64,000 bases of DNA from Escherichia coli (GTDB lineage Bacteria > Pseudomonadota > Gammaproteobacteria > Enterobacterales > Enterobacteriaceae). Made by a program: the position numbers. Shown here in pieces: positions 39,201-42,200 of the stretch; the first letter of the stretch is position 1, and every line of letters begins with the position of its first letter. The stretch is from the NCBI RefSeq assembly GCF_044324785.1, contig NZ_CP172128.1; one strand, given 5' to 3'.

Positions 39201-42200
39201 CAGCAGCAGATCCAGACGCTGGCTTTGTTTGTCGACGGAGAAGATGAGCGGCGTCAGTGTGGCGGGCGGTGTTCCGTTAAGTGGAACCCGCAGTGCCGGG
39301 TCTCGCGGTGCAGCGGCTGGCTGGCGGTCCTCCCCCAGATACAGGGTGTCGGGTACTTTGTCGGGGAGACGTACATCCTGCATGAGCTGTGGCCATCCCT
39401 GCTGTAACAGGGTCATCATCTGGCGGAATGTGGCCGCCGGATATTCCCGGATGTACTGGCCTTCATGCGGGTTATCATGCGATACGCTGATCCCGTTACA
39501 GACCGGTTTCATGGTCCAGATATTTCGCACCCATTCCGGTTTGCCCGGTGATGAAGGTGATCTCTCCCGGGCCTGCAATGTCAGTGTGACGGGGTCGCCT
39601 TTCTGGTGGTTTTTGACCAGTTCTTCCAGGTCTTTTCCCCAGTATTCCCGTTTGCCACTGCGGTTGGTGAGCTCCACAAAAAAGCAGCGCCCTTTTCCGG
39701 GCGCATACTCTTTTTCTCCGTAGTTTGTCAGGACGGCAGTCACACTTTCACCGGGGCTGAGCTTGCCGGGCGGCTCTTCCTCCGGTGTGTCGGGTTGCTG
39801 CGGCTGTGCACTGACAGGGGCTTTTTCTGGCGCTGACGACGGGGCGGCTGGTTGTTCCGGTCTGTCGGCCCGGGGGGCTTCAGCTTTTGCCGTGACCGGC
39901 GCTTCCGGATGCGGTGTTTCAGCCGTACTGCCTGCAGTTTGCTCTGTTTCTGCTTTCGGTGACACAGGGGAGGCCGGTTGTGCCATTGTTGTCTCTTCCG
40001 GTGACAGGCGGTTGAGTTCCGGCGTGGGTCTGTGGGTGACGATGGCATCATGCGCCATCCCTTTCTCCTGGCGGAGTTTTTCCAGCGCAGCCCTCTGGGT
40101 GGGGAGTTTCATGCGAACCTTGATGTCGTATTCGACAATCAGTTGCATGGCTTTTTGTTTAAAGGCATCACTGCCGGTCAGCTCGATAACGCCGCCATAG
40201 AAGTTGGTGGCCACAGCAAGGGCTGCCAGAACCTTTTTGTCATCAGCGCTGGCACCATCCACCATTTCGAGACAATAGAGTCTGTCCAGGAAGGCTGGTT
40301 CGCCGTCAACACGGTAGAGCGCTGTCCTGTCGGGAAACTCTTCGTGCTCAAGATTTTTAATAATCTCGTCCAGGTTGTGCCGCTGCGGACTGTCGGGACG
40401 GCGGGGCGCAAAGATAATCGTGTCCGGTTCTGCTGACGATGTGTCTTCCGGGCTGTTTTCCGGTGGTGATGGTGGTGCGACCTCCTCTGTTGCTGTTTCA
40501 GCCTCCGTGGGCTTTTTCTCCTGAATAACGGAAGGTTCTGAGGTGCGTGATTTCCCACCGGTCAGAAAACGGCGCAGGCGGCTGAAAAGCGATGGTGTTT
40601 CAGGGCGGGCTGCTTCATTCTCTGTGCTGGTCTCAGTGGCAGACACAGGACGCTCTTCCTTCGGTTTATCTTCTGCTGTTGGTTCAGGGGTTGCCTGCTG
40701 TACGGGCTGAATTTCTGCTGGTTCAGAAGGTGAGGCTGTTTCTGCTGTGCCGGTGTTGTGAACAGCAACCGTGGCATCGGCATTGAGCTCCTCAGCGGGT
40801 GCGTTCCTGTTGTCATCGGTGATGTCAGAGGAGTTCTCTGCGCCGGTCTCAGCGGCAGACGCAACGCTCTTTTCCTGTGCTTTATCTTCTGCCGTCAGTT
40901 CAGTGGTCACCTGCTGAACTGGCCGCATCCCGGCCGGTTCAGAAACTGTGTTTGTCTCCGCGTTGTCGGTGTTGTGAACAGTGGGGGCCCCCGGAGTGTC
41001 AGCGTTGAGATCTTCCGCAAATGCGCTCCAGTCGTCAGCGGTGGCCATGGAGATCTGCACTTGTTCTTCAGACTGCGTTGTGGTGGAGTGCTGTATCCCG
41101 GCCGCGTCGGAGAGGGAGGTTTCCGGTGTGTCTTCACTCCGGGGATGTTCTTCTGCCTGCGTGCTCTGGTTGTCAGCGGTGGTGGCAGAGGCTTTTTCTT
41201 CACCGGTATCAGCGGTAGCCACAGAGGCATTTTCTTCCCTGGTATCGGCAGCGGAAACAACGTTCTGGTGTGGTTTATCTTCTGCGGTCGGTTCAGTGGT
41301 TGCCTGCTGCACGGACTGCATCCCGGCAGGTTCAGGAAGCGTTCCTGTTTCTGCTGTGTCGCTGTTGTGAGCGGTGTCTGTACCTGTGGCGTCTGTATTG
41401 AGGTCTTCCTGGTCGCCAGCGGTAGCCGCAGAGGTATTCTCTGTGCCGGTATCAGCGGCAGACGCAATATTCTCCAGTGGTTTATCCGGGGATAACGTCT
41501 CCGCAGTTACTGATTGCAGGGATGCATAGGCGGCATAGTCATCTTCATATGCCTGGTTTTCTGTATCGTCGGAGTGGGTGTCATAAGGCGTATCCTGTGT
41601 CGCCAGCTCCGTTTCCGGGGCTGTGCTCTGTCTGTTTTCAGGGGACATTTGTGGCTTCTCATCTTTTACCGGTGTGAATATCAGGTTGCCGATCACGACA
41701 GCCTCACGATTGTCGGCAGTGTCACTGTTGGGTGTGGGGATACCGATATGTTTTAACTGTGCGTTCATGGCATTCTGAAAGTCGTCCCGTCCCCGGCTGG
41801 CGTCCAGGTCATTGAAATCGGTCAGTCCCTGTGCTTTTTCCGCCTCCGTAAAGGCCGGAATAATGACTTCGCCATTCGTGACTTCTGCGGCCTTTGTTGC
41901 ACTAAAAACCCCTTTGTTAATTTCCCGTTGATGATCGTTGTCGGCACAGAAGACAAAGGGGCTGTCAGTCCAGATTTGGCGGGCATTTTCTGCCACGGCA
42001 ATCATATTGCTGGCATCAACTGTCATCAGAACCGGAAGGCCGGTTGCTTCGTGCAGGGAGGCGGCAGTAGCGTAACCTTCCGCAAATAACAGGGGACGGC
42101 CATTTTCCGGGGTTCCGAAGGTGAACCAGTTGCCGGTTTTCTCGGAGTCTTTCAGAATGCGGGCATCCTTCCCGCCGGTGACCGGAATACGCTGGTACGA

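Follow-up and report, generated by a model that had tools for sequence, protein, structure and literature searches.

The central region of the Sog-type plasmid primase encoded in the window (i.e., the whole 64,000-nucleotide stretch of Escherichia coli DNA analysed here) contains diverged repeat units whose number varies between related plasmids. We consider this region to be, probably, a disordered acidic inter-domain linker of Sog, a tether selected for its charge, length and flexibility and not for the sequence of its units. The copy-number-variable repeat linker is genuine, although as a feature of an already known protein it is rather ordinary. Sog is among the few proteins known to pass in large numbers from a conjugating donor to its recipient. 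In both poultry and humans, I-complex plasmids rank as major carriers of resistance to cephalosporins.

The sog-like gene and its products

The window is part of an E. coli IncK2/Z (I-complex) plasmid, and its sog-like gene (Table 1) is 100% identical to the counterpart in the IncK2/Z plasmid NZ_CP100531. It is flanked on either side by traK-like and traL-like genes. The annotation of NZ_CP100531 gives the order traJ, a small conjugal transfer protein, the sog-like gene, a small protein and a DotI/IcmL-like protein, and in the IncI1 plasmid pN600 traL and traM come after sogL. In BLASTP, aa 3-1353 of the product aligned with aa 5-1255 of an annotated IncI1 SogL (1255 aa) with 52% identity and 1270 bits. 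Based on the position between the traK-like and traL-like genes, the 52% end-to-end identity to SogL and the Toprim domain with its EGYATA motif, the 1353-aa ORF is confirmed as a Sog-type conjugative plasmid primase of the MPF_I transfer operon. The first-pass annotation had called the protein Sog/TraC-like; gene position and full-length homology to SogL bear out the Sog type, in which the primase is N-terminal, but not the RP4 TraC type. In RefSeq the product carries the name 'LPD7 domain-containing protein', which hides its primase identity.

The Toprim_3 match passed the Pfam cut-off (27.2 bits) only when the N-terminal 400 aa were scanned alone, and Toprim was absent from the full-length Pfam and NCBIfam scans of the 1353-aa protein. 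AlphaFold models aa 200-387 with a pLDDT of 80-97, and the best Foldseek matches of the predicted primase fold were the T7 gp4 primase and DnaG catalytic cores (probability 1.0). The N-terminal Toprim domain noticed in the first pass is thus upheld both by the match within the first 400 aa and by the T7 gp4/DnaG-like predicted fold. On the other side of the linker, aa 831-940, which cover LPD7, are modelled with a pLDDT of 76-93. For the C-terminal part, Pfam gave LPD7 only, a domain of unknown function, and found no DNA-binding domain. LPD7 places the Sog protein among the multidomain proteins with a 'large polyvalent protein-associated domain' (the class of Iyer et al. 2017), and SogL has been named as a transferred Toprim primase (PMC5512222). 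A sequence search of the PDB returned one low-complexity chance match only, in another Pro/Ala/Glu stretch (aa 961-1039).

The gene may also encode a shorter product. SogS of R64 has 844 aa (PMC6112013), and its start therefore lies at residue 412 of SogL, with which Met410 of the window's protein is aligned. Four homologues have ATG at this position and a lineage of 87% identity has GTG, the codon being start-capable in all five; the Shine-Dalgarno-like GAGAAG upstream of Met410 is weak. Judged from this alignment, a short SogS-like product starting at Met410 is likely, in which case the repeats would also make up its N-terminus.

Table 1. Features of the sog-like gene and of one further gene in the window (window coordinates; amino acid positions refer to the sog product).
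Feature	Amino acids	Coordinates	Strand	Evidence or remark
sog-like gene (SogL-type plasmid DNA primase)		38814..42875	-	1353-aa ORF
DUF5710 domain	6-57	42705..42860	-	Pfam PF18974, E = 1.2e-8
Toprim domain	264-364	41784..42086	-	Pfam Toprim_3, E = 2.7e-6, 28.2 bits
EGYATA motif	266-271	42063..42080	-	read in translation, inside Toprim
Whole predicted disordered acidic linker	389-830	40386..41711	-	AlphaFold pLDDT < 50
In-frame internal ATG (Met410), likely start of 944-aa SogS-like product	410	41646..41648	-	alignment to IncI1 SogL Met412
Partial unit U0	433-489	41409..41579	-	unit HMM 24.3 bits; z = 5-11 vs full units
Unit U1	490-566	41178..41408	-	unit HMM 123 bits
12-aa micro-duplication DTREENASVATA in U1	545-556	41208..41243	-	DNA copies 36 nt apart
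Non-repeat spacer (53 aa)	567-619	41019..41177	-	z < 1.5 vs units
Unit U2	620-694	40794..41018	-	unit HMM 130 bits
Unit U3	695-762	40590..40793	-	unit HMM 104 bits
Basic amphipathic island LFSRLRRFL	765-773	40557..40583	-	conserved; closes acidic stretch
LPD7 domain	853-937	40065..40319	-	Pfam PF18821, E = 9.6e-10; first folded domain past linker
DotM_C-domain protein		14789..16051		E = 2.8e-47

Repeat units, disorder and constraint in the linker

The interval 40560..41560, singled out in the first pass as some 330 aa of acidic, repeat-built sequence following the Toprim domain, corresponds to aa 439-772 of the sog product. Three full diverged units of 68-77 aa and one partial unit lie within aa ~433-762, and at the DNA level a 164-nt stretch occurs in three copies of 62-72% identity, at spacings of 216 and 393 nt. 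Pairwise local alignments of U1, U2 and U3 scored 149-186, against a mean of ~40 for composition-preserving shuffles (z = 16-22), and the best off-diagonal self-match of the linker reached z = 20.8. The DNA copies and the unit scores support the repeat-built stretch as described. The word 'tandem' applies in part: the repeats are genuine, and U0-U1 and U2-U3 adjoin directly, but the array is not strictly head-to-tail, as the spacer, whose C-terminal end is a conserved DDWSAF island, splits U1 from U2. Likewise, the repeats do lie within 40560-41560, but the disordered, low-complexity stretch is longer (aa ~389-830). U0 covers positions 13-71 of the unit model, with a YEDDYAAY island at its start, and the U3 core IQPVQQATPEP is the sole part of a unit that can be aligned with the IncI1 linker (QQPVQSTSP).

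Standard searches were largely blind to these repeats. Tandem Repeats Finder reported no array in the region because the copies are too diverged, and BLASTP of the linker against itself found no off-diagonal matches, so that unit-versus-unit alignment with shuffles was used instead. Scanned alone, the linker gave no Pfam match up to E = 10. When 5.8 billion proteins were searched with U2+U3, all occurrences of the unit were in fragments of the same E. coli primase, and nothing pointed to a portable module.

The composition of aa 401-790 is dominated by Thr (14.9%), Ala (14.6%), Glu (12.1%), Ser (9.0%) and Asp (7.9%). AlphaFold predicts no secondary structure for aa 389-830, with confident domains on both sides, and aa 410-772, with a net charge of -57, a pI of 4.05 and a hydrophobic fraction of 0.12, fall on the disordered side of the charge-hydropathy boundary. 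The disorder prediction that the first-pass annotation had proposed as a check thus returned a disordered linker by pLDDT and by charge-hydropathy. The linker has the highest dN/dS of the gene (0.52-0.58, compared with 0.07-0.32 in the flanks). Positive selection was considered and is unsupported, the region-wide dN/dS being 0.5. Between units, dN is ~0.3 and dS ~0.8-1.0, pointing to old duplications whose frame was retained under some purifying selection, and a core (PAG/E-I/M-Q-P-V-Q-Q-x-T-x-E-P-T-A-E-D-K-P) is better conserved than the rest of the unit. The inter-unit dN/dS of ~0.3-0.5 and the conserved core suggest some sequence-specific constraint beyond a pure spacer model.

We propose that in the SogL-like long product (1353 aa) the linker would join the N-terminal DnaG-type primase module to the LPD7-containing C-terminal part, and that in the SogS-like short product (944 aa, starting at Met410) it would form the N-terminal third. 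In the plasmid lineage of the window, the linker would have been built through duplication of a ~72-aa unit, and the array would diverge fast under a constraint that is relaxed yet present. Selection would act on bulk properties, i.e., length, negative charge and flexibility, together with a few short conserved islands, and an acidic tether would keep the abundantly exported Sog extended, soluble and unfolded. Selection on bulk properties is suggested because the IncI1 linker is unalignable and repeat-free, yet has a net charge of -53, because a net negative linker is present in every one of the 43 Sog-like representatives in which LPD7 follows a primase, and because other linkers of the family are built from unrelated repeats. 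Two transposon screens on related plasmids called sogS or sogLS required for transfer (PMC4288162; PMC10286972); these are uninformative on the linker itself, since insertions there are polar on the C-terminal part.

The fast divergence could also be read as that of a neutral filler, a low-complexity insertion without function that is tolerated and drifts in sequence and length. Such drift would fit the high dN/dS, the failure to align the IncI1 and IncK linkers and the range of linker lengths in the family (34-725 aa). We consider it unlikely, as the dN/dS is near 0.5 and not 1, frame and negative charge are maintained in every homologue examined, and the old duplicates (dS ~0.8-1) have been kept intact. 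Besides, short islands are conserved far beyond shuffle expectation: the DW..F motif occurs in 6 of the 43 family linkers (0.1 expected from shuffles), and the basic amphipathic motif class in another count of 6/43, against 0 in 200 shuffles. A strict acid-aromatic pattern, [DE][AS]Y..[MLI], was not enriched (3/43 linkers, compared with 0.6 expected and a shuffle maximum of 3). On visual inspection, less strict D/E-Y motifs are found repeatedly close to the beginning of many linkers.

The conserved core of each unit would acquire a more specific meaning if the units served the type IVB coupling complex as multivalent acidic recognition sites, with the Glu/Asp-rich cores binding the plasmid's DotM-like TrbA and the unit number tuning the efficiency of Sog export to the recipient. 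In the passage of PMC8406263 that cites Wilkins and Thomas 2000, the I1 system is said to export hundreds of Sog copies independently of DNA. In Legionella, Glu-rich signals bind DotM (PMC8740702), and the window encodes both a DotM_C protein (Table 1) and a TraG/DotL-like coupling protein. What the units have in common with the Dot/Icm E-block signals is that they are acidic and belong to substrates of related type IVB systems, to which the DotM homologue can be added. However, the Legionella signals are C-terminal, located in the last ~20-30 substrate residues, whereas the units of Sog occupy hundreds of residues in the interior of the protein (aa 433-762 of 1353). Moreover, IncI1 SogL is exported without such units, the U2+U3 search found the unit in no other protein, and the 43 family linkers have charge in common but no motif, which makes this role improbable.

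Equally improbable is a role as nucleic-acid mimic, in which the linker, by analogy with the acidic tails of SSB and T7 gp2.5, would mask a DNA-binding surface of Sog (in the primase or the C-terminal part) in cis until the transferred strand is met. The high and conserved negative charge, ~-0.15 per residue and shared in sign by 43/43 family linkers, and the proposal that Sog polypeptides coat the transferred strand (PMC6112013) are in line with it. On the other hand, Pfam detects no DNA-binding domain C-terminally, only LPD7, and linkers ranging from 34 to 725 aa fit a defined intramolecular contact poorly. Were the units, against these odds, internal multivalent TrbA docking elements or a cis-acting DNA mimic, their number would set the Sog molecules exported per mating or the timing of strand engagement, and the repeats that expanded separately in other Sog-like primases would represent convergent tuning of one function. 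For the window's linker we retain the flexible acidic tether as the preferred reading.

Copy-number variation between plasmids

Related plasmids carry two, three or four full units, three being by far the commonest. Among the closest 120 protein clusters, four units were found in 3 and two units in 1. The linker is carried by 336 complete E. coli genomes, with the 1001-nt length in most entries of a spread sample. In plasmid pTB-nb2, exactly 216 nt (72 aa, one unit) are missing from a sequence otherwise > 99% identical; the absent segment corresponds to 40729..40944 of the window and holds most of U2, and the edges of the deletion share a 9-nt identity in register. In CP070395 the loss amounts to 222 nt when compared with the closest allele, and a 25-nt identity borders it. 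Gains are seen as well, in variants of 1458 and 1463 aa that are longer by 120 aa, i.e., a spacer and a unit. The 1458-aa form is a protein cluster with 160 member sequences, and in the 1463-aa variant the spacer has been duplicated along with one unit. The 12-aa micro-duplication of U1 is present or absent depending on the allele, with a 12-aa gap in three alleles (L003, L004 and L005).

The first-pass annotation had supposed that the unit number varies between isolates and had named a comparison across homologues as the way to check it. The two-, three- and four-unit alleles confirm the variation, though length variants are rare, and the 216-nt and 222-nt losses and 120-aa gains mean that the linker is not invariant in length or sequence. 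Unequal recombination or slippage between in-register units would still be altering the array length, giving rise to these alleles. Three units may predominate because length is under stabilising selection, or just because the alleles descend from a recent common ancestor. Neither the repeats nor the variation in their copy number turned up in literature searches. U2 comes in two types that are mutually just 53% identical; having diverged like paralogues, these two types of the middle unit can mislead SNP-based plasmid phylogenies.

Repeats can collapse or expand during assembly, and short-read assemblies of the core gene sog indeed break at this one, numerous fragments of the primase, on contigs 240-1850 bp in length, having come up in the U2+U3 search. 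That the length variants are assembly artefacts and the polymorphism not real is nonetheless very improbable, since the inter-unit DNA identity of 62-72%, with identical runs of just 9-25 nt, is insufficient for collapse, every variant is in frame, and the variants occur in complete, circular plasmid sequences that differ in laboratory and country of origin, as well as in the 160 sequences of the 1458-aa cluster.

It is scarcely credible that long frames on the opposite (+) strand, such as the 245-aa ORF at 40758..41495 within the repeats, encode a separate protein that owns them: the open stretch shrinks or shifts in homologues (253, 169 and 183 codons) and is missing there in IncI1, the sense frame has a dN/dS below 1, and the antisense stop codons are removed because the sense codons are nearly without T at position 1 (9%). 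We therefore reject this ORF as a composition artefact.

Comparison with TraC, other Sog-like primases and IncI1 SogL

TraC1/TraC2 of RP4 (IncP) belongs, like the protein of the window, to the plasmid primases of the Toprim/EGYATA class. The EGYATA motif of RP4 TraC, and its synthesis as two in-frame products, were reportedly described by Strack et al. in 1992. The TraC primase is transferred to recipients, and in TraC1 the primase module is C-terminal, after ArdC-like and peptidase domains (PMC5512222). In the window's protein, by contrast, the primase module is N-terminal, and Pfam found no ArdC or peptidase families in any third of the sequence. Many of the representatives recovered have the primase module at the C-terminal end and are taken to be of the TraC-type architecture.

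Among the Sog-like primases, at least six lineages have linkers made of unrelated repeat units, with periods of ~20-75 aa. In six of these proteins (P0126, P0144, P0170, P0175, P0185 and P0124) the repeat-built linker likewise lies between the primase module and LPD7, and it resembles that of the window in being net negative, low in hydrophobicity and strong in internal repeats (z = 21-34), but the units are unrelated in sequence and in period (~20, 33, 37, 38 and 75 aa). Matches to the window's unit model are confined to the IncK/B/O/Z clade. The repeat linkers of the other Sog-like primases are independent expansions.

The closest known system is SogL/SogS of the IncI1 plasmids R64 and ColIb-P9, for which primase activity and passage of the protein to recipients are established in the literature. 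It shares with the window's protein the position between traK and traL, the N-terminal Toprim domain with EGYATA, LPD7 and a start-capable codon where the SogS start has been mapped. The window's protein is 98 aa longer than IncI1 SogL. The linkers are similar in size and charge (304 aa and net -53 in IncI1; 363 aa and net -57 in the window's plasmid), but unlike that of the window, the IncI1 linker is free of internal repeats (self-match z = 2.1) and is not matched by the unit model. The two cannot be aligned except for short islands, i.e., the internal Met, DW..F, QPVQ and the basic amphipathic motif, which reads FLDKARGFF in IncI1 SogL where the window's protein has LFSRLRRFL. Overall, the natural series of two, three and four units, together with a repeat-free IncI1 counterpart of equal charge, offers material for asking whether the length or charge of a disordered segment affects type IVB export.

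Identity of the primase and its plasmid context

The sequence is 100% identical to that of the E. coli plasmid pLH10-b-1-A (NZ_CP100531), typed as IncK2/Z, MOBP and MPF_I. The acidic repeat region lies within a 1353-aa protein, which gene position, SogL homology, domain content, the EGYATA motif and the primase-core fold together identify as an I-complex Sog primase. In the NZ_CP100531 annotation, traJ and then a small conjugal-transfer gene precede the primase gene, and a small gene followed by DotI/IcmL-, DotH/IcmK-, traO-, traP- and traQ-like genes stands downstream; IncI1 plasmids carry sogL at the equivalent position, with traL and traM after it. 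Over its whole length, the protein aligns with IncI1 SogL as annotated (1255 aa), at 52% identity. Its EGYATA motif was reportedly defined by Strack et al. in 1992 for the primases of I- and P-type plasmids and P4 alpha. In the AlphaFold model (aa 200-960), pLDDT is 80-97 at aa 200-387, and the closest solved structures are the T7 gp4 primase and DnaG catalytic cores. The Toprim_3 match was obtained only when the N-terminal 400 aa were scanned alone and was lost in the full-length scan, for which the low-complexity linker may be the cause. Because of this absence, RefSeq names the protein either 'LPD7 domain-containing protein' or 'DUF5710 domain-containing protein'. Its location, its end-to-end homology and its domains thus confirm the Sog-type primase proposed in the first-pass annotation, while its Sog/TraC-like label stands for the Sog family but not for the architecture of RP4 TraC, whose primase module is C-terminal (PMC5512222) and not N-terminal as here.

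Besides, we interpret the DotM-domain and TraG/TraD-type products as the TrbA- and TrbC-like components of a type IVB coupling complex. The two sok matches, about 720 nt apart, suggest a neighbouring pair of post-segregational killing loci of the hok/sok type (pnd-like).

Features of the primase and of other elements in the window
Feature	Position	Strand	Residues	Basis
Sog primase gene	38814..42875	-	1-1353	open reading frame
DUF5710		-	6-57	Pfam
Toprim_3	41784..42086	-	264-364	Pfam, 28.2 bits (cut-off 27.2)
EGYATA motif		-	266-271	translation
Acidic repeat region	40560..41560	-	439-772
U0, partial unit		-	about 433-489	z = 5-11
YEDDYAAY island	about 41526..41549	-	443-450	conserved
U1		-	490-566	unit alignment, shuffles
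Spacer		-	567-619
DDWSAFAEDL island	41007..41036	-	614-623	conserved
U2		-	620-694	unit alignment, shuffles
U3		-	695-762	unit alignment, shuffles
LFSRLRRFL island	40557..40583	-	765-773	conserved
LPD7		-	853-937	Pfam
Second linker	39756..40040	-	946-1040	low complexity
TraG/TraD-type coupling protein	11414..13687	-		domain match
DotM C-terminal domain protein	14789..16051	-		E = 2.8e-47
AgrB antisense RNA	16194..16283	-		Rfam; adjoins DotM-like gene
sok antitoxin RNA	19473..19629	+		full-length match
sok antitoxin RNA	20193..20350	+		full-length match
STAXI RNA	6366..6523	-		Rfam
ALIL frameshift pseudoknot	2702..2788	+		Rfam

Repeat units, predicted disorder and a possible short product

The linker is rich in Thr (14.9%), Ala (14.6%), Glu (12.1%), Ser (9.0%) and Asp (7.9%). 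Tandem Repeats Finder reported no array in this region, and a repeat finder applied to the DNA recovered a 164-nt stretch in three copies (62-72% identity, spacings of 216 and 393 nt). At the protein level, pairwise alignments of U1, U2 and U3 score 149-186, where composition-preserving shuffles average about 40 (z = 16-22), and the spacer shows no repeat similarity to the units, giving the order U0(partial)-U1-spacer-U2-U3, with a 12-aa micro-duplication inside U1. Comparison of the units with one another gives a dN of about 0.3 and a dS of about 0.8-1.0, and therefore the duplications are old. The repeats are real, far beyond chance, and not strictly head to tail; the composition and diverged units noticed at first reading are both upheld.

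The linker is predicted to be disordered, a prediction proposed earlier as a check. Residues 410-772 (net charge -57, pI 4.05, 12% hydrophobic residues) fall on the disordered side of the charge-hydropathy boundary, and aa 389-830 have pLDDT < 50 and no secondary structure, with the confidently modelled Toprim and LPD7 domains on either side as an internal control. A second, Pro/Ala/Glu-rich linker between LPD7 and the C-terminal domain (hydrophobic fraction 0.08, net charge -7) shows weak similarity, no better than chance, to an AEAPK-repeat protein.

In R64, sog encodes SogL (1255 aa) and SogS (844 aa), the latter from an internal in-frame start (PMC6112013), which places that start at residue 412. 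The R64 SogS start Met aligns with Met410 of the present primase (FTPVHTEEKTM against FTPVKDEKPQM). Four homologues have ATG at this codon and an 87%-identity lineage (L007:301-4317, NZ_AP019762, codon 410) has GTG, so that a start-capable codon is kept; the Shine-Dalgarno-like sequence upstream of Met410 is weak. If this start is used, the repeats would form the N-terminal third of a putative 944-aa SogS-like protein, and the description 'central linker' would fit the long product only. Transposon screens found the SogS-coding part required for transfer of pESBL (PMC4288162) and sogLS for that of pMS7163B (PMC10286972); because the insertions are polar, they are uninformative on the linker itself.

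Unit-number polymorphism and selection

Full units per allele number two, three or four by the unit HMM, as had been anticipated for such repeats. Exactly 216 nt (72 aa) are missing from pTB-nb2, which is > 99% identical elsewhere, and U2 and U3 are fused there across a 9-nt stretch that is identical in register. In pCFSAN083829_2 the deletion, measured against the nearest allele, is 222 nt, with the junction at a 25-nt identity. On the other hand, two longer forms, of 1458 and 1463 aa, contain a further 120 aa consisting of spacer and unit, and one cluster of such proteins has 160 member sequences. The 12-aa micro-duplication is present in some alleles and absent in others. We take the polymorphism to be real, because all length variants preserve the reading frame and were found on complete plasmids from different laboratories; the units are too dissimilar at the DNA level for assembly collapse to have produced them. 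Many database entries (P0271-P0287) are primase fragments on 240-1850-bp contigs ending within the repeats, where short-read assemblies evidently break.

Length polymorphism is nevertheless rare. Among the 120 closest protein clusters, the three-unit state greatly outnumbers the others, and the linker, found in 336 of 5426 complete E. coli genomes and always plasmid-borne, is mostly 1001 nt long in the sampled rows. The middle unit exists in two types with only 53% mutual identity, as distant as paralogous units, which accounts for a locally raised dS between alleles. Both types stand in tandem in the 1463-aa database protein P0001, and the existence of two types suggests either a four-unit ancestor that underwent different deletions or else unequal crossing-over between alleles.

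With dN/dS of 0.52-0.58, against 0.07-0.32 in the flanking domains, the linker is under relaxed constraint without being neutral; positive selection on the region as a whole is not supported. A 245-aa open frame on the opposite strand (40758..41495, +) was rejected as an antisense gene; its extent varies among homologues, and it arises because T is nearly absent at sense codon position 1.

The linker within the Sog family

A scan covering all of 1.84 billion representatives gave 9563 relatives, in which the widely shared part is the primase module. The order primase-linker-LPD7 occurs in 41 of the best 150 relatives, which with the present protein and IncI1 SogL gives 43 linkers of 34-725 aa. 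Net charge is negative in all 43 (-3 to -65), and the hydrophobic fraction is mostly low (6-30%). According to the unit model, the present unit is confined to the IncK/B/O/Z clade among family linkers, and a dedicated search with U2 and U3 returned nothing beyond pieces of this same primase from very short contigs. At least six other lineages of distant Sog-like primases (P0126, P0144, P0170, P0175, P0185 and P0124) carry strong, independent repeat arrays at the equivalent position, whose units are unrelated and measure about 20, 33, 37, 38 and 75 aa; in P0124 the ~75-aa units are more hydrophobic (fraction 0.20) and may fold instead of being disordered.

Three islands, YEDDYAAY, DDWSAFAEDL and LFSRLRRFL, have conserved counterparts in IncI1 SogL and in relatives of 47-51% identity, the rest of the linker being unalignable. 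In nearer relatives, the internal Met, DW..F and the basic amphipathic motif are conserved far above shuffle expectation; across the family, DW..F occurs in 6 of 43 linkers (0.1 expected) and the basic motif at the linker end in 6 of 43 (0 expected). We regard the three named islands as candidate short linear motifs.

The best-supported reading is that the linker serves as a flexible acidic tether selected for its bulk properties, a function we infer; it includes a few short conserved islands, and its length goes up or down through recombination between diverged units. What the data demonstrate is the repeats, the predicted disorder, the length polymorphism with its junctions and the conservation of charge. 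Two more interesting readings are possible but unlikely. The units might be multivalent docking sites for the DotM-like TrbA protein; this plasmid encodes a DotM_C protein, and in Legionella DotM is bound by Glu-rich signals (PMC8740702); however, the units are internal in the primase, and IncI1 Sog is exported without them. Alternatively, the linker might act in cis as a DNA mimic. Neutral filler is argued against by the dN/dS values, the old retained units and the islands conserved above shuffles.

We found no paper on Sog linker repeats or their copy-number variation within an incomplete coverage of the literature. Overall, disordered linkers prone to repeats are very familiar, and this one belongs to a known protein. 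The acidic linker can be compared with that of IncI1 SogL, which differs in being without repeats (z = 2.1, no unit-model match) and in having YED-Y after DW..F, whereas it stands before DW..F in the IncK primase, but whose net charge of -53 over 304 aa is almost equal.
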